Shown: positions 21,461 through 25,520 of the stretch, one piece after another
How positions within the stretch are numbered: position 1 is the first letter of the stretch
Layout: each line of letters opens with the position of its first letter
Source: an uncultured Oscillospiraceae bacterium
GTDB lineage: Bacteria; Bacillota; Clostridia; Oscillospirales; Oscillospiraceae
Assembly: GCA_964395795.1 (NCBI GenBank)
Contig: CAYNBS010000002.1
Location: 51,293-115,292, forward strand
Reading direction: 5' to 3'
DNA length: 64,000 bases
The notes under the pieces: model-generated
What the model saw: the letters and a program-made list of their open reading frames with translations, nothing else
Told to the model about the DNA's origin: nothing
The model's database searches: none
Translations under genes and position numbers: made by a program

Positions 21461-22660
21461 ATGGAACTTGCTTACACGCCCCCCTGCCCCTACTACAAAA
21501 AGTGCGGCGGCTGCCAGCTCCAGAAGCTGCCCTATGGCGAACAGCTCCGGAGGAAGATGGGCCGCTGCATCGCCCTGCTGGGCGAGTTTGGCCATGTGGA
21601 GCCCATCCTCGGCATGGAGCATCCGGAGCGCTACCGCAACAAGGTCCACGCCGCCTTCGCCCTGGACGGGCGGCGCCGCGTCATTTCCGGCATCTACCAG
21701 CCGGGAAGCCACGCCATCGTGCCTGTGGACGACTGCATGATCGAGGACGCCGCGGCGGACGCGGTGATCCGGGATATCCGGGAAATGCTGCCCGCGTTCA
21801 AGATCAAGGTCTTCGATGAGCGCAGCGGCACCGGCTGGCTGCGCCATGTGCTGATCCGCCGGGGCTTTGCCACGGGGGAGCTGCTGGTGGTGCTGGTGGC
21901 GGTGTCCCCCATCTTCCAGCTCCAGAAGCCCTTTGTGAAGAAGTTGACCGAGCTGCACCCGGAAATCACCAGCATCGTGCTGAATCTGAACGATCGCTTC
22001 GGCCCTGTGGTGCTGGGCATCCGGGAAAAGGTGCTCTACGGGCCGGGATATATCGAAGATGAGCTGTGCGGGCATCGCTTCCGCATCTCTCCCCGCTCCT
22101 TTTATCAGGTCAATCCCGTGCAGACCGAGATCCTCTACCGCAAGGCGGTGGAATATGCCGCCCTCACCGGGAAGGAGACCGTGCTGGACGCCTATTGCGG
22201 CATCGGCACCATCGGCATCACCGCGTCAGGCAAGGCCAAGCAGGTCATCGGTGTGGAGCTGAACCGGGACGCGGTGCACGACGCCATCACCAACGCCCGG
22301 CTGAACGGGCTGAAAAACTGCTGGTTCACCGCCGGGGACGCCGGAGAATACATGGAGCAGACCGCCCACAGCGGCCTCAGGCCGGAGGTGGTCTTTCTGG
22401 ATCCGCCCCGGGCCGGCAGCGACGAACGCTTTCTCCGCTCCCTGCTCACCTGCGCTCCCGCCCGGGTGGTCTATGTCTCCTGCGACCCGAAGACGCTGGC
22501 CAGGGATCTGAAAATCCTCACCGCCGGCGGCTATCGGGCGGAGAAGATCCAGCCGGTGGACATGTTCCCGTATACGGAGCATGTGGAGACAGTATGCTGC
22601 TTGTACCACCAAAAGAAAGAGTTTATCTCAGTGCCCTATGAGCCGAAGGGTAACGTGTAA
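21461..22660 (+). CDS. rlmD: 23S rRNA (uracil-C5)-methyltransferase RlmD/RumA family; the last 24 codons are supplied by the inserted cassette
   Basis: Fe-S cysteine cluster CPYYKKCGGCQLQ, SAM motif LDAYCGIGTIG, and DPPRAG, VSCDP, FPYTEHVETV. ATG 21461 has GGAGGTG 7 nt upstream. Confidence 0.85.
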   Translation: MELAYTPPCPYYKKCGGCQLQKLPYGEQLRRKMGRCIALLGEFGHVEPILGMEHPERYRNKVHAAFALDGRRRVISGIYQPGSHAIVPVDDCMIEDAAADAVIRDIREMLPAFKIKVFDERSGTGWLRHVLIRRGFATGELLVVLVAVSPIFQLQKPFVKKLTELHPEITSIVLNLNDRFGPVVLGIREKVLYGPGYIEDELCGHRFRISPRSFYQVNPVQTEILYRKAVEYAALTGKETVLDAYCGIGTIGITASGKAKQVIGVELNRDAVHDAITNARLNGLKNCWFTAGDAGEYMEQTAHSGLRPEVVFLDPPRAGSDERFLRSLLTCAPARVVYVSCDPKTLARDLKILTAGGYRAEKIQPVDMFPYTEHVETVCCLYHQKKEFISVPYEPKGNV

Positions 22661-22685
22661 TCGAAACATGAAATTTGACCAGTAA
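22586..22685 (+). repeat. direct repeat copy 1 (replacement rlmD tail ETVCCLYHQKKEFISVPYEPKGNV* plus the MKFDQ* stub)
   Basis: Hand alignment to 23538-23633 gives 56/63 identities in the first 63 nt. The repeat resumes at ATGA(A/G)ATTTGAC after the stop. Confidence 0.85.
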
Positions 22686-22712
22686 AGCGAAGCTTGCGAG
22701 GATTCATGCAGA

Positions 22713-23498
22713 ATGATGATAGGTAGCTCAAATGATGTTGAAGCCGTTAGAACACAATATTCTTCATCGAATGGATTAAATGTCAGGATCGCTTTCCATG
22801 ATATGTATTCCACCAACAAATACGGATATGGCAATTGGATTCTTTCTAACTATGAGATTTCTGAAGGAGCCAAGGCGTTGGAAGTGGGCTGCGGCACTGC
22901 GAGCATGTGGGTGGGACATGATGATTTGATCGCCAGATGCGGGATCCTGATGCTTACTGATATGTCAGAAGGAATGCTTTCAACAGCACGAGAAAATATT
23001 GGGGAAAGAAAAAACGTAGCATATACTTTGGCTGATATTCAAGATATCCCCTTTGAGGATGATTCATTTGATGTAGTCATTGCCAATTCGATTCTATATC
23101 ACGTTCCAAAGATAGAATGCGGAATCCGTGAAGTCAGAAGAGTTCTTAAGAATGACGGGATATTTTATTGCGCAACTTACGGAGAGCATAACTTTACTGA
23201 CGTTCTTGCAGACTGGTTTAAGCTTGATGGTGAATCATTCAGGCCTAACCATCATTTCACCATGCAAAACGGAGAGCAGATACTTAAGGCGGCATTTACG
23301 AACGTAGAAGCCAAATACTATGAGGATTCTCTGCATATAACCAACATAGACGATTTGGTCGATTATCTCCGAAGCCTTGTGTCTTTGAAAGCAATCATCG
23401 ATTTGCCTTCTGACAGAATCTATGAAATTCTATTGCGGCATTCATGTGATGGGACAATAGAGTTGCCCAAAGAATATGGTATGTTCGTATGCAGATGA
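22713..23498 (+). CDS. class I SAM-dependent methyltransferase (Methyltransf_11/25-like), cassette cargo
   Basis: 261 aa. SAM motif ALEVGCGTASMW and acidic loop LTDMSEGML, with FDVVIANSILYHV. AT-rich relative to the flanks. Confidence 0.75.
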   Translation: MMIGSSNDVEAVRTQYSSSNGLNVRIAFHDMYSTNKYGYGNWILSNYEISEGAKALEVGCGTASMWVGHDDLIARCGILMLTDMSEGMLSTARENIGERKNVAYTLADIQDIPFEDDSFDVVIANSILYHVPKIECGIREVRRVLKNDGIFYCATYGEHNFTDVLADWFKLDGESFRPNHHFTMQNGEQILKAAFTNVEAKYYEDSLHITNIDDLVDYLRSLVSLKAIIDLPSDRIYEILLRHSCDGTIELPKEYGMFVCR

Positions 23499-23537
23499 CA
23501 AATCCCTGGCGATCTGTTCCTCAATTAGCCGCTAATT

Positions 23538-23633
23538 GAAACGGTATGCTGCTTGTACCACCAAAAGAAGGACTTCATCTCAGTACCGTATGAGCCGAAG
23601 AATGTGGAGTAAGACATGAGATTTGACAACGCG
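23538..23633 (+). repeat. direct repeat copy 2 (non-translated rlmD tail ETVCCLYHQKKDFISVPYEPKNVE* plus the start of the P-loop gene)
   Basis: Same 75-nt length as copy 1. An upstream in-frame TAG at 23526 closes the frame. A 7-bp inverted repeat, CAATTAG-CCG-CTAATTG, at 23522-23538 abuts it. Confidence 0.85.
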
Positions 23634-24248
23634 TATTTTATTACTGGTACGGCCTATGCAGGCAAATCAACGATGATAAAACTGCTTGCAAAGAAATATG
23701 ATGGCATCCTGTGTGAAGAAAACTATCACGATCAGCTATTGCCAGAGTTGGACAGTGCAGAGTTCCCTTTTCTGACATACACTCGTGATCTAAGGGATTG
23801 GCATGACTTCATCAGGAGAAGTCCAGAGGAATACAAGGCGTGGATGGACGGCGTGTCTCATGAATGTGAGATATTGGAGCTCAGGATCCTTGACGGGCTC
23901 AAGGAGCAGAGAAAGCCTGTGTTTGTAGATACCAATATTTCAATAGAGACATTGAAAAGGATAACTCCCTCAAATCATGTACTGGTCATGCTGGCGGATC
24001 CTCAAATATCTGTGAGGCGCTTCTTTGAAAGACCAGATCGCGAGAAGCAGTTCTTATATCAGTTGATTATGGATGAACCCGATCCTGAGAAGGCAATGGA
24101 GAATTATCGGAAAGGGCTCATGCTGATCAATTCACAGGAAAACTATGAACACTACTTACACTCAGGGTTTCATGTGATTATCAGGGATGAGAGCCGAACC
24201 ATACTGCAAACATTGGAACTGGTTGAAAAGGCATTCGGTCTGGATTGA
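23616..24248 (+). CDS. P-loop NTPase / kinase-like protein, cassette cargo
   Basis: 210 aa with Walker A GTAYAGKST near the N-terminus, in the size range of small-molecule/nucleotide kinases. AT-rich. Confidence 0.6.
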   Translation: MRFDNAYFITGTAYAGKSTMIKLLAKKYDGILCEENYHDQLLPELDSAEFPFLTYTRDLRDWHDFIRRSPEEYKAWMDGVSHECEILELRILDGLKEQRKPVFVDTNISIETLKRITPSNHVLVMLADPQISVRRFFERPDREKQFLYQLIMDEPDPEKAMENYRKGLMLINSQENYEHYLHSGFHVIIRDESRTILQTLELVEKAFGLD

Positions 24249-24319
24249 TGTGAAGGAAAAACTTGAACATTTATCTGTCGCAAAATATTCGACAGTTGAG
24301 GTAGTACAATCAAAATCCA

Positions 24320-24358
24320 GTTGAGACCGTCGTTGCCTTGACCCGAGCCGGGTTGTGA
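24320..24358 (+). pseudogene. displaced original 3' end of rlmD (VETVVALTRAGL*)
   Basis: GTT GAG ACC GTC GTT GCC TTG ACC CGA GCC GGG TTG TGA. It is GC-rich, shares the E-T-V codons with both cassette joins, and has no upstream ORF. Confidence 0.6.
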
Positions 24359-24461: not shown

Positions 24462-24500
24462 GGCGAGCGCCATCGGAATCAAATTCCGATGGCGCTCGCC
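24462..24500. terminator. bidirectional intrinsic terminator (18-bp stem)
   Basis: GGCGAGCGCCATCGGAAT-caa-ATTCCGATGGCGCTCGCC, followed by a T-rich run. It lies between the island and the convergent lipoprotein gene. Confidence 0.75.
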
Positions 24501-24524: not shown

Positions 24525-25520
24525 TCAATACTGGTCAAAATAGCTCTCGTCCCGCATCCAGTAGGCGTACAGCACAAGGCCTTCCTCGGTGCCCACGCTG
24601 CCGCAGGGCGTTCCGTCAGCATCGATGCATTTCTCCCCGGTGCCCTGGAAGCCCGTGTAATAGCCCATGAACCGGAAGCCCTCCAGGACGGGCGGCTGCA
24701 CCTTCTCCTGCAGCTGGCCGTTCACCGCCGTTACCGTGGTGGGCGGCAGCAGATCCGGCCCCTTTTCCACCTCGCCGCTGCCCTCGCTGTAGTACATTCT
24801 GCCTTCCGTCAGGTCATACATGCCCGCCCGACCGGTGCTGAGGCAGTAGCAGGGCATATAGTCCCGCACCACGGCGTCATCCTGCCAGATCCGGCAGCCG
24901 AAAACCCGCAGGTCATAGCTCCCGGGCGCGTCATGGGTCCCGGCGATTTCCATGTCCATGTGCTGGCGGGAGAAAATAAAGAGATGCTGGGGGCAGGGCT
25001 CGTCGAATGCGTGGAGCACCACCCCGTGGCGAACATCCGGATAGACATAGTTCCCCGGGTGCAGGTAGGCCACTGTCCGCGCGGCGGAATCCTCCGACTG
25101 GGAATACTGGATCCCGGTGACAGTATAGAAATTCGCCGGGTTCCCCTGGCTCATATGATAGCCCACTTCCATAAACATGTGCTGATCCCGGTCGAAGCAG
25201 CCGAAGAACCAGGTGTCCTTCACCTGGAAGCCGGAGGTGCACTGGAAGTCAAAAACAAAGCGGGTGGTGTTGGTAGGGCTGATGCCGGTGTCCAGATAGG
25301 TTTGCGCCTCCGTATTGGTATTGGTGCAGGCGGCATATTCCGTAAGCTGATAGTCCTCCGGCAAATTATCGTTCTTCAGGACGACTTCCGTCACCACCTC
25401 CGGCTCCGGGCCGGGATCCTGGGTCTCGGCGGGGGCAGCAGTCTCCTGCCCTGCGGCGCCGCAGGCGCACAGCGGCAGGATCCAAAGAAGAAGCAGGATG
25501 CTCGCAAGAACTTTTTTCAT
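24525..25520 (-). CDS. lipoprotein with C-terminal InlB B-repeat (Flg_new-like) module
   Basis: Lipobox LPLCAC. The C-terminal GFRFMGYYTG..GLVLYAYW resembles a Listeria-Bacteroides repeat. The central domain is unassigned. Confidence 0.6.
   Translation of the reverse strand: MKKVLASILLLLWILPLCACGAAGQETAAPAETQDPGPEPEVVTEVVLKNDNLPEDYQLTEYAACTNTNTEAQTYLDTGISPTNTTRFVFDFQCTSGFQVKDTWFFGCFDRDQHMFMEVGYHMSQGNPANFYTVTGIQYSQSEDSAARTVAYLHPGNYVYPDVRHGVVLHAFDEPCPQHLFIFSRQHMDMEIAGTHDAPGSYDLRVFGCRIWQDDAVVRDYMPCYCLSTGRAGMYDLTEGRMYYSEGSGEVEKGPDLLPPTTVTAVNGQLQEKVQPPVLEGFRFMGYYTGFQGTGEKCIDADGTPCGSVGTEEGLVLYAYWMRDESYFDQY

Follow-up and report, generated by a model that had tools for sequence, protein, structure and literature searches.

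The island at 22586-24322 of the window (the whole 64-kb stretch of DNA that was analysed) is likely a tandem of two non-autonomous, CIME-like mini-elements that were moved by large serine recombinases (LSRs) acting at a site in the 3' end of rlmD (rumA). Judging from the sequences, the GA of the 11th rumA codon, counted back from the stop, is the predicted attB, and the 75-nt tail carried by each unit is the P' arm of attP. The original prediction had proposed repeated site-specific insertion at one codon-level site, with each incoming unit restoring the gene by its own tail; our analysis supports both points, placing the site at the GA of a GAG/GAA codon and the replacement tails in frame, and shows that such units are single-gene, lack a recombinase and occur beside varied cargo in many genomes. 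The alternative offered there, relics of rumA-targeting elements resembling CIMEs, comes close to our conclusion. Its claim of novelty has to be divided: the hot spot and the tail replacement have already been described (PMC4120198; PMC4701971), while the sub-kb unit looks new.

The gene that carries the island in its 3' end was identified as rlmD, encoding the 23S rRNA U1939 methyltransferase, by the NCBIfam model TIGR00479 (rumA; 358.7 bits, cutoff 183.55). Its host part, on the + strand at 21461-22585, runs to the residues FPYTEHV with a GC content of 0.64 and a GC3 of 0.86, and its terminal 30 nt, GTGGACATGTTCCCGTATACGGAGCATGTG, constitute the B arm of the attachment site, for which 50 rumA joins gave the consensus gT.GAcATGTTcCC....AC...gCAtGTg directly before GA. 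At GA 22586 the composition switches from host-like to AT-rich, as had been claimed, and the hand-counted G+C values (23/60 at 22741-22800 and 42/60 at 22441-22500) were exact on recount. The 1.74-kb island beginning here has a GC content of 0.423 (42%) versus 0.619 for the whole window, with GC3 values of 0.41 for the methyltransferase gene and 0.50 for the kinase-like gene, and a composition scan revealed no other AT-rich island in the 64 kb.

Beyond the island, join 3 (GA at 24323-24324) opens a GC-rich (0.64) segment on the + strand, 24323-24358, which reads ETVVALTRAGL followed by a stop. The orphaned reading VETVVALTRAGL with its stop at 24320-24358 was confirmed, and so was its assignment as the displaced native end of rlmD, here the B' arm: the segment from 24323 comprises exactly 11 codons and resembles the tails of relatives (ETVVKLTRAGS, ETVVLLTRA), and its length agrees with the 11-codon rule of the published rumA hot spot (PMC4120198). 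At 24462-24500 the repeat and terminator scan detected an 18-bp stem that pairs perfectly and has T-runs on either strand, probably a native bidirectional terminator that rlmD shares with the convergent gene. This terminator follows only after the native tail and is separated from the rlmD body by the island, within which no comparable terminator was found and promoter-like matches on the + strand are weak. Relatives L016 and L033 share 80% identity over the pseudouridine synthase-rumA region and carry other cassettes at the same site. The nearest RlmD relatives are just 88-89% identical and have insertions too, and a search for an empty-site allele or a circular intermediate of the same species found none.

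At join 1 (crossover GA 22586-22587), the rlmD host part is fused in frame to tail unit 1 (22586-22660, + strand), ETVCCLYHQKKEFISVPYEPKGNV and a stop, a P'-type arm that now forms the RlmD C-terminus and that stops early relative to the homologous longer tails in L004 and L056 (..KDDGYLKRLK and a stop). Join 2 (GA 23538-23539) leads into tail unit 2 (23538-23612, + strand), ETVCCLYHQKKDFISVPYEPKNVE and a stop, which lies outside any ORF and is kept non-coding by an in-frame TAG at 23526. The description of these copies as a 75-nt repeat with a coding signature proved accurate: 56/63 positions are identical, and all seven differences fall on codon position 3 (6 silent, 1 Glu/Asp). A repeat search of the window returned the tail family as 86 nt at 79% identity, and the invariant 26-mer GTATGCTGCTTGTACCACCAAAAGAA occurs exactly twice in the window, against 0.00 occurrences expected by chance. 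The two copies remain alike upstream of GA (TGTTCC), since cassette 1 terminates on the right in a mimic of the site's rumA side. All three joins (22586, 23538 and 24323) fall at GA, with right arms of the P' or B' type. The coding-like pattern of the non-coding copy is explained by the tail being an LSR attP P' arm that would be translated, according to its position, into the C-terminal end of either RumA or the recombinase.

Cassette 1 (22586-23537, + strand; 952 nt) starts with the tail and a 52-nt spacer, which are followed by a methyltransferase gene and, on the right, by a mimic of the B arm. Its cargo gene (22713-23498, + strand) encodes a class I SAM-dependent methyltransferase of 261 aa (Methyltransf_11, E 2e-20; sub-threshold matches only in NCBIfam) with 28 members in its 90% cluster. 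The right end, GGCGATCTGTTCCTCAATTAGCCGCTAATT (23508-23537, + strand), is in the same register as the rumA B arm, scores -6.1 with the rumA-arm PWM (above the 99th percentile of the background) and falls in a class whose translation reads ..VDLF.....[VI] up to the join. Homologues of this cassette were found behind an LSR 3' end in L004 (84.5% DNA identity) and behind another rumA in L056 (72.5%), and L128 has a copy whose protein is 100% identical; directly 3' of this copy come ETVVSLTRRERNS with a stop and a GC-rich host gene.

Cassette 2 (23538-24322, + strand; 785 nt) is composed of the tail, a 3-nt spacer and a P-loop gene and closes with GGTAGTACAATCAAAATCCAGTT (24300-24322) as its right end; GGAG lies within the final tail codons. 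The gene (23616-24248, + strand) encodes a P-loop NTPase or kinase-like protein of 210 aa, with a weak match to AAA_18 (E 1e-3) and no match in NCBIfam or PADLOC; its 90% cluster has 426 members, Solobacterium and Oscillospiraceae among them. Compared with L017, an Erysipelotrichaceae MAG, identity is 96% over 793 nt and collapses at both GA joins. Further copies occur in L016, L005 and L023 (84-86%) and, fully conserved by eye, in L136, and the right neighbour is different in each genome. The GGTAGTACAATCAAAATCCAGTT side has no likeness to the rumA arm by PWM, which counts against our preferred explanation. The hairpins said to terminate each cassette were upheld for one of the two: the one at 23521-23539, where cassette 1 ends, is real, with a stem of 8 bp and a z of -2.6, while that at 24274-24294 is weak (z -1.0), is deleted in three homologous cassettes and is probably incidental, so that terminal hairpins are not a general cassette trait.

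To place the two units in context, we examined a comparative set, nearly all MAGs and 8-kb sequence chunks, that was collected through one tail type only. In this set at least 119 genome stretches, from species representatives that are mostly ruminant-gut Firmicutes, contain the tail pattern; among the matches listed, 50-53 tail copies are fused to highly diverse rumA genes (50 by one classifier, 53 by another) and ~70 lie at internal joins. Wobble positions in tail codons 3-10 are 88-97% invariant though they were left free in the search pattern, indicating a DNA site, and those in codons 11-21 are 51-79% conserved (Tyr18 88%) with positions 1 and 2 at 89% or more, indicating protein coding. 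Among the matches listed, 78/92 tails have a co-oriented ORF (52-474 aa) behind them, nine an opposite-strand ORF and five none; the co-oriented ORFs, which represent 44 families, begin within 60 nt of the tail in 70 of the 78 cases (spacer typically ~30 nt). Consecutive tails are 428-1243 nt apart in 12 of 13 pairs. A Pfam scan of 38 of the 44 cargo families identified 10 as GNAT acetyltransferases and others as kinases, methyltransferases, hydrolases and NUDIX proteins, predicted functions that are typical of small-molecule or antibiotic modifiers.

The same cargo was found in changing company. A 138-aa cargo protein is 97-100% identical in nine genomes, in which it is preceded by rumA (three kinds), LSR ends or B-mimic ends, and both window cassettes recur beside other neighbours, with identity breaking exactly at the GA joins. 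When 71 different internal right ends were scored with the rumA-arm PWM, 30 came out above the 99th percentile in the same register, where 0.7 would be expected; the right ends are heterogeneous, with at least five types, which fits poorly with a single recombinase recognising all of them. The pool spans at least four families or orders and many cargo types. Logan unitigs of ~950-980 nt break at the invariant 26-mer, and assembly graphs branch at the tails. Tail-bearing single-gene cassettes form a large, apparently undescribed pool in rumen Firmicutes that is shared in an integron-like manner. Confinement of the tail to this locus and its cargo, or the same two host-like genes in all relatives, had been named as grounds for rejecting the original interpretation; the tail was instead seen beside different cargo in many genomes, and the idea of the same host-like gene pair in all relatives is already contradicted.

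The reported absence of a recombinase was confirmed as regards LSRs: tblastn with two LSR queries matched only the tails within the 64 kb, and the same search picked up 28%-identical LSRs at other loci. The frames 5' of 24323 are stop-rich, with no LSR gene fused to the native rumA tail, and the island contains only the methyltransferase and P-loop genes, with no conjugation or mobilisation module (relaxase, coupling protein, T4SS). In other genomes the tail is linked to LSRs. L026 (546 codons) and L042 (555 codons) each encode an entire LSR, its domains being Resolvase, Recombinase and Zn_ribbon_recom, in an ORF that reads through GA into the ETVCC tail. LSR 3' remnants stand before the tail in L004, L050 and L083, where the same cassettes adjoin LSR genes or remnants, which would lend indirect support to mobilisation in cis. 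Homologues of the tail-fused LSRs end in ELPLExxxT[VL] immediately before ETV and are joined to short rumA tails or to ~90-aa left-end ORFs (vanG/ICE-r type), and the ETVCC-tail LSRs belong to the same abundant family as the LSRs of rumA-targeting elements. Moreover, the P arm of the L042/L050-type LSR holds a rumA-arm-like motif, GATATGTCAC.

[quoted passage not shown] The GA target, the 11-codon displaced tail, the in-frame replacement tail and the tandem stacking in the window match the site geometry of this hot spot. In our reading, each cassette comprises the P' arm, a short RBS spacer and one ORF co-oriented with rumA, and closes on the right with a short segment that imitates the rumA (B) arm in cassette 1 and in many other cassettes; from this layout, each internal join is attL-like and the last join, between a right end and the native tail, attB- or attR-like. 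In the unintegrated or tandem state the tail would serve as a C-terminal extension of the recombinase, and after integration as the new RumA C-terminus. We infer that cassettes may ride as passengers of an LSR-bearing element, which would enter rumA, or a B*-B' site that has been reconstituted where an array ends, by attP x attB; during excision (attL x attR), attR may pair with any upstream attL-like join, by which the element could gain or drop cassettes. At the window locus the recombinase-bearing element would have gone, leaving two deposited cassettes that are probably transcribed from the rumA promoter through to the terminator at 24462-24500. Recombination of an attL-like site with attR normally requires a directionality factor, and none was found, which counts against this passenger model, as do the lack of an LSR in the 64 kb and of a circular intermediate or empty-site allele. 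The earlier view that the proximal cassette is the newest was left without support, as the data are compatible with either order: the canonical LSR reaction implies distal addition at a reconstituted attB, and use of attL as a pseudo-attB implies proximal addition.

A more far-reaching reading, to which we give somewhat less than an even chance, is a cassette system of rumen and gut Firmicutes, based on LSRs and functionally convergent with integrons, in which sub-kb promoterless units are captured, stacked, shuffled and expressed at the rumA 3' end; it takes together a P'-type arm doubling as the C-terminus of RumA or the recombinase, an engineered copy of the rumA arm and the exchange of units between classes. 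If the cassettes are mobile as units, this would be a second, mechanistically independent path to integron-like gene capture, with a serine instead of a tyrosine recombinase, double-stranded half-sites instead of folded attC, and a housekeeping gene that provides the platform as well as the promoter, and it would account for the transfer of small accessory genes without mobility genes of their own among distant gut anaerobes.

How single units might move was considered separately. It is possible, though rather unlikely, that cassettes or blocks of them excise as mini-circles and are inserted by an LSR in trans into rumA or an existing join, the joined ends (right end next to P') forming a miniature attP comparable to attC x attI capture in integrons. 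Individual cassettes have indeed changed both neighbours independently, their compact standard layout and orientation bias (78:9) are hard to obtain from random decay, and GATATGTCAC in the LSR P arm suggests that B-like and P-like arms are not sharply distinct. However, the right ends with the best conservation follow the register of the attB arm and not that of the LSR-gene (P) arm, so that the circle would carry an attL-like site. LSRs such as the integrases of phiC31, Bxb1 and A118 do not normally recombine a site of this kind with attB or attL (PMC3783163). Circular junctions were not seen in the Logan unitigs, which merely break at the 26-mer.

The units could also be fossils, namely the left ends of two tandem full-size ICEs or IMEs whose remainder was deleted, now immobile and recurring by common descent. 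CIMEs and decayed accreted elements are common at such sites, and the short LSR 3' remnants in L004, L050 and L083, the early stop in tail unit 1 and the ameliorated tail of L125 would all be in keeping with decay. Nevertheless, random deletion is not expected to leave, repeatedly, one ORF plus a 30-40-nt rumA-arm mimic ending precisely at GA, nor would it place one cassette, 96-100% identical between copies, in several bacterial classes with other neighbours on both sides, and the tail has kept a coding-type substitution pattern. The standard one-ORF layout and the B-mimic ends would speak for a design under selection and not for decay of an ICE or IME. We regard this account as improbable. 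Shuffling by homologous recombination between the 60-90-nt tails, with a site-specific step in the first insertion only, is very improbable, since, although the tails are the sole long, highly conserved repeats of the arrays and assembly graphs branch there, the junctions at 24322/24323 and in L128 (B* next to ETVVSLTRRERNS) have just ~8 nt in common with the tails but still fall precisely at GA, and homologue identity starts and stops at GA, not within the tail, for both window cassettes.

Compared with known systems, the tandem shares several features with the LSR-driven ICEs and IMEs of rumA in Firmicutes (vanG, ICE-r, ICESp2905/Tn1806-type, IME_SpnAP200_rumA and CTn5 of C. difficile 630 delta-erm): a GA target (here GAG 22586), an 11-codon displaced tail, a native-like in-frame tail from the left end, tandem stacking, and an attP inside the recombinase gene, by which rumA and LSR tails are exchanged. 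Those elements, however, measure 10-100 kb and carry a right-end LSR and transfer or mobilisation genes, whereas the window units measure 0.8-0.95 kb, contain a single cargo gene without any recombinase and close on the right with a short stretch that looks synthetic. The concept of CIMEs (cis-mobilisable elements) and accretion-mobilisation comes from work on ICESt1/ICESt3 of Streptococcus thermophilus (Pavlovic 2004; Bellanger 2011; reviewed in PMC5704250). Like CIMEs, which accrete with a functional element that carries or leaves them, the window units are flanked by att sites (joins at GA) and lack recombination and transfer genes, with no LSR in the 64 kb; classical CIMEs differ in using tyrosine recombinases at fda or tRNA loci, spanning several kb and being seen as decay products, whereas the present system is LSR-based and miniaturised, with a single, putatively promoterless gene between a standardised P' arm and a B-mimic arm, and draws on a shared pool.

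The SCC/psi-SCC elements of staphylococci (rlmH/orfX) and the ECC elements of enterococci likewise use LSRs to insert at the 3' end of a gene for an rRNA methyltransferase and leave that gene intact, with direct-repeat att sites bounding stacked units, some of them recombinase-less (psi-SCC, ECC remnants). SCC differs in its target (rlmH) and recombinases (CcrAB/CcrC), as the window has rlmD/rumA and LSRs of the rumA type; it also ranges from kb to tens of kb, holds many genes in both orientations and lacks an in-frame 24-30-codon tail common to the recombinase. With integrons, the system shares co-oriented, mostly promoterless single-gene cassettes of 0.4-1.2 kb at one site behind a resident promoter, a pool common to several species and cargo rich in GNAT acetyltransferases and small-molecule-modifying enzymes; in the window and the comparative set a co-oriented, putatively promoterless array is indicated by the 78/92 co-oriented ORFs, the lack of a terminator in the window island and the weak promoter matches. 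Instead of the tyrosine recombinase IntI with adjacent attI and Pc, the associated recombinases are of the serine type and the platform is the housekeeping gene rumA; in place of attC single-strand hairpins there are asymmetric, double-stranded LSR-type half-sites around GA, with a modest hairpin at join 2 (z -2.6) and none at join 3. To our knowledge, integrons are essentially unknown in rumen and gut Firmicutes.

In practice, GTATGCTGCTTGTACCACCAAAAGAA can be used as a PCR or probe handle to catalogue the pool in rumen metagenomes, and the engineering of LSR landing pads can draw on the natural ends that mimic attB. Short-read assemblies are broken at rumA by the repeated unit, and RlmD C-termini are often element-derived, which calls for caution in genome annotation. 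As a further observation, the tail in L125 is ETVCC-like, GC-rich and ameliorated.

The RlmD/RumA ORF on the forward strand (21461-22660; TIGR00479 score 358.7 bits, cutoff 183.55) has host composition up to ..FPYTEHV at 22585 (GC 0.64, GC3 0.86). GC then falls to 42% at the GAG at 22586 and recovers only after 24322, and 22586-24322 is the sole AT-rich island of this kind in the 64 kb. The sequence description and the hand counts of G+C in the original prediction were correct on recomputation. The island consists of two units. Cassette 1 (22586-23537) carries a class I SAM methyltransferase (22713-23498, forward strand; Methyltransf_11, E 2e-20), and cassette 2 (23538-24322) carries a P-loop protein of 210 aa (23616-24248, forward strand), which matched only AAA_18 at E 1e-3 and had no family match in NCBIfam or PADLOC. 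A role of the cargo in a defence system was rejected, since PADLOC returned only a generic methyltransferase-domain match to mad2 for the methyltransferase and none for the P-loop protein. Each cassette begins with a 75-nt tail. The tail at 22586-22660 is repeated at 23538-23612 with 56 identities in 63 positions, all seven differences falling on codon position 3, and the window contains two copies of its 26-nt core where 0.00 would be expected, so that a chance repeat was rejected. Immediately after cassette 2, a GC-rich orphan tail (24323-24358, forward strand; GAG ACC GTC GTT GCC TTG ACC CGA GCC GGG TTG TGA, or ETVVALTRAGL and a stop) is preceded by stop-rich frames. It resembles native-type tails of RlmD relatives (ETVVKLTRAGS, ETVVLLTRA, ECVVKLSRQEGTR and others), which upholds the proposal that 24320-24358 holds the original end of rlmD. 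When the 1.8-kb island was searched against plasmid and phage databases (blastn 'distant'), no phage match and one irrelevant 96-nt Ruminococcus albus plasmid match were obtained, and IMG/VR gave a single match; the island is thus neither phage- nor plasmid-borne in the collections searched. Of two hairpins proposed to terminate the cassettes, the one at 23521-23539 outperformed shuffled sequence and the other did not, and hairpins were rejected as a defining feature on the basis of homologous cassettes and of folding against shuffled sequence.

The 3' end of rumA is a described integration hot spot (PMC4120198, PMC4701971), used in streptococci, enterococci, Roseburia, C. difficile and Dehalobacter, among others. 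In the known elements, the left end continues rumA in frame with a sequence similar to the native 11 residues, the gene of a large serine recombinase (LSR) makes up the right end and is joined to the native 11 codons, and tandem arrays such as vanG plus ICE-r occur (PMC4120198, PMC4701971, PMC11578063). The window matches this geometry exactly: the crossover lies at a GA, the orphan tail has 11 codons, and the replacement is in frame. Its reconstructed attB (B^B', where ^ marks the join at GA) is ..GGAGCATGTG GA GACCGTCGTTGCC.., and the consensus of rumA B arms is gT.GAcATGTTcCC....AC...gCAtGTg^GA. The exact RlmD of the window was found only in the source genome and in one Logan contig with the same cassette, and among the closest relatives (88-89% identity) L124 has other insertions and L125 an ameliorated ETVCC-like tail. 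The original prediction had asked whether all relatives share the same tail and cargo: loci L016 and L033, 80% identical through the pseudouridine synthase-rumA region, hold different cassettes at the same site, and a same-species empty site was not found. At L124 (RlmD 89% identity), an AT-rich two-cassette island (1309-2750) begins with a short tail, ETVVLMTRN and a stop, followed by a second tail of the ETVCC type; hence a short 'native-looking' tail can come from a cassette as well. At L125:6126-6170, and also in L126, an RlmD of 88% identity ends in ETVCLMCR and a stop, followed by out-of-frame KRDFVPV in GC-rich DNA. It has the appearance of an old ETVCC tail that became the fixed end of the gene after amelioration to host composition.

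We scanned the GTDB set, at one genome per species, for VCCLYHQKK with a pattern degenerate at the codon level; a protein search with a 42-aa tail query had given only 8 candidates, leading to L001-L004. The pattern occurs in at least 119 stretches, nearly all from ruminant-gut MAGs of Lachnospiraceae, Oscillospiraceae, Erysipelotrichaceae, Christensenellales and unclassified Clostridia, and Erysipelotrichaceae NK3D112 has a unit (L084); the comparison loci are mostly MAG contigs viewed in 8-kb chunks and ascertained via one tail type. Sufficient flanking sequence was present at 123 joins, of which 50 are fusions to a wide variety of rumA genes and the remainder are internal. Two loci, L026 and L042, have complete LSRs (546 and 555 codons, with Resolvase, Recombinase and Zn_ribbon_recom domains) whose frames stay open through the GA into the tail, and in L004, L050 and L083 LSR 3' remnants lie at the join ahead of it. 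The L026 LSR has thousands of homologues, which end in ..ELPLExxxT[VL]^ETV.., followed by a short rumA tail or a left-end ORF of about 90 aa of the vanG/ICE-r type. From these comparisons, we conclude that the tail is the P' arm of an attP lying inside the recombinase gene, translated as the recombinase end in the P^P' state or as the RumA end in the B^P' state. This explains the coding-like substitutions noted earlier in the non-coding copy. Among 112 distinct copies, the third bases of codons 3-10 show 88-97% invariance though left free by the search pattern, pointing to a DNA-level constraint over the first 30 nt, while codons 11-21 show a coding pattern (wobble 51-79%, 88% at Tyr18; positions 1 and 2 at least 89%). 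When the 64 kb were searched by tblastn with two LSRs, the two tails alone were matched.

Several further observations concern the tails and their annotation. LSR homologues P0159-P0278 fall into three length classes (554-559, 563-586 and 645-661 aa), and because the class is set only by the segment beyond the crossover (native rumA tail, short element tail or ~90-aa left-end ORF), annotated LSR length reports the integration state. At L001:10544-10870, the gene caller placed a 110-aa minus-strand ORF over a plus-strand, start-less left-end ORF of 108 codons (ETVISLSQQRPDHY...HFQMI) of the vanG/ICE-r type, and such left-end tails are likely to be widely mis-annotated. The sole match in a Patescibacteria MAG (L013:2853-2878, KRVCCFYHQKKNYKQIR and a stop) has neither a GA join nor a tail continuation and looks like a chance hit of the degenerate pattern. 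Logan unitigs L128-L135 (941-1140 nt), which carry the exact methyltransferase, have one or both of their ends in the invariant 26-mer; the tail unit fragments assemblies systematically at rumA and thereby probably hides many arrays in MAGs.

The cassettes share a standard layout. In the ORF census, restricted to the 92 tails that have 250 nt or more downstream, a co-oriented ORF of 52-474 aa comes next in 78 cases, an ORF on the opposite strand in 9 and none in 5; 70 of the 78 co-oriented ORFs begin within 60 nt of the tail, and consecutive ETVCC joins lie 428-1243 nt apart in 12 of 13 cases. The 78 cargo ORFs form 44 families. A Pfam census of 38 representatives yielded 10 GNAT acetyltransferases, together with P-loop kinases, methyltransferases, hydrolases, NUDIX, radical SAM and PNPOx-like proteins. 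In the window, a SD-like GGAG lies within the last tail codons ahead of the kinase ATG, and the island contains no terminator, the sole strong one lying at 24462-24500, where a perfect 18-bp stem closes a 3-nt loop and either strand has a T-run. The orientation bias, the short spacers with SD-like sequences and the position of this terminator suggest that the cassettes are probably expressed from the rumA promoter. The terminator is probably bidirectional, between rlmD and a convergent 331-aa lipoprotein-like gene (24525-25520) that has no Pfam match. Relative to its homologues in L004 and L056 (..KDDGYLKRLK and a stop), tail 1 has, within 22640-22690, small indels and substitutions leading to an early stop (..KGNV and a stop), and its leftover resembles the kinase ORF start (ACATGAAATTTGAC versus ACATGAGATTTGAC); this suggests that the start-codon region of the kinase evolved from the end of a tail.

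Cassettes also recur as discrete modules. One cargo is found at 97-100% aa identity in up to nine species-level genomes, behind three rumA genes, LSR ends and other cassettes. Cassette 2 is 96% identical over 793 nt to a unit in the Erysipelotrichaceae MAG locus L017 and 84-86% identical to those in L016, L005 and L023, with identity collapsing at both GA joins. After its right end, GGTAGTACAATCAAAATCCAGTT^GA, come the native tail in the window, ETVCC tails in L016, L017 and L136, and a different sequence in L005. Cassette 1 lies behind an LSR 3' end in L004 and behind a Lachnospiraceae rumA in L056, and in L128 (100% protein identity) it forms the final unit, its right end being joined to ETVVSLTRRERNS and a stop and then a GC-rich host gene. 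In the high-GC host of L001, at least five units with three tail types are packed into 2.6 kb with no recombinase.

Many cassette right ends mimic the rumA B arm. A frequent type ends in ..TTTGTTGATTTGTTTC(N17)TT^GA and reads ..VDLF.....[VI]^ in the rumA frame despite stops, in the same register as rumA GACATGTTCC..CATGTG^GA. When scored with a PWM built from 53 rumA arms against the cassette background, 30 of 71 distinct internal right ends exceeded the 99th percentile (0.7 expected) and 44 exceeded the 95th; the right end at join 2 of the window (23508-23537) is among the 30 and that of the kinase cassette is not. At least four other recurrent types exist (FIHAIVPRHV, ISSFISSCHV, ISDTDxRVPRHV and the kinase type), most having in common only the proximal CAYGT[GC]^GA. 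The ..FIHAIVPRHV^ ends were rejected as recombinase C-termini, being open upstream for only 34-51 codons. At L136:1000-1140, just upstream of the internal join ahead of the kinase cassette, the rumA-arm motif (T/G)GACATGTT(C/T)CC is repeated four times in tandem at intervals of 29-44 nt; the repeats may represent accumulated empty B-type arms or an array of binding sites.

Canonical LSR chemistry would suffice to move such cassettes. With B-type left and P'-type right arms, internal joins would be attL-like, and the terminal join of a B-mimic cassette with B' would be a reconstituted attB. An LSR element could then integrate via attP x attB into rumA, or into the reconstituted site at the array end. 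At excision its attR would pair with any upstream attL-like join, and the element would thereby take away or abandon any suffix of the array. On this view, the window would show what remained once the driver element had gone. The process would be accretion and cis-mobilisation as in cis-mobilisable elements (CIMEs), transposed to a serine recombinase and miniaturised. The original prediction held that the proximal cassette is the newest. This is unsupported, because attL serves as a pseudo-attB too, as proposed for the integration of vanG proximal to ICE-r (PMC4120198), and position does not reveal age.

The att sites of the window belong to the known rumA/LSR system, and in its mode of operation the island parallels a CIME tandem and the psi-SCC units at rlmH. 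It has no LSR or transfer genes that would make it an ICE or IME, and its target gene and recombinase differ from those of SCC. CIMEs and SCC/ECC are already described; within an incomplete coverage of the literature, in which an earlier description may have been missed, we found no account of sub-kb single-gene cassettes bounded by LSR sites or of attB-arm mimicry. The island looks like an integron array, with no IntI and no attC, and that it represents a genuine cassette-capture system convergent with integrons is a real possibility, to which we give somewhat less than even weight. Movement of independent mini-circles in trans is rather doubtful, and no circle was observed. Logan contigs of 941-1140 nt that carry the exact methyltransferase have the 26-mer at one or both ends, with a 24-26-nt terminal overlap; a repeat-bounded unitig of the window genome itself would look the same, so they are not evidence for circles. 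That the units are immobile fossils produced by simple decay is improbable given their standard design. Homologous recombination between tails, which could shuffle cargo, is unlikely as the main route, because the GA boundaries are exact at joins sharing only ~8 nt (24322^24323 and L128).

Beside the LSR in L141, L026, L083 and L042 lie KilA-N, HTH, PIN/antitoxin and IS30-like genes, and the 3-6 kb of sequence that these loci offer contain no transfer genes. In three of these loci, a KilA-N-domain protein of 257-288 aa is encoded directly upstream of and overlapping the LSR gene, near small HTH genes (L026:493-1359, L083:2196-2969 and L141:4801-5667), and is a candidate regulator or directionality factor.
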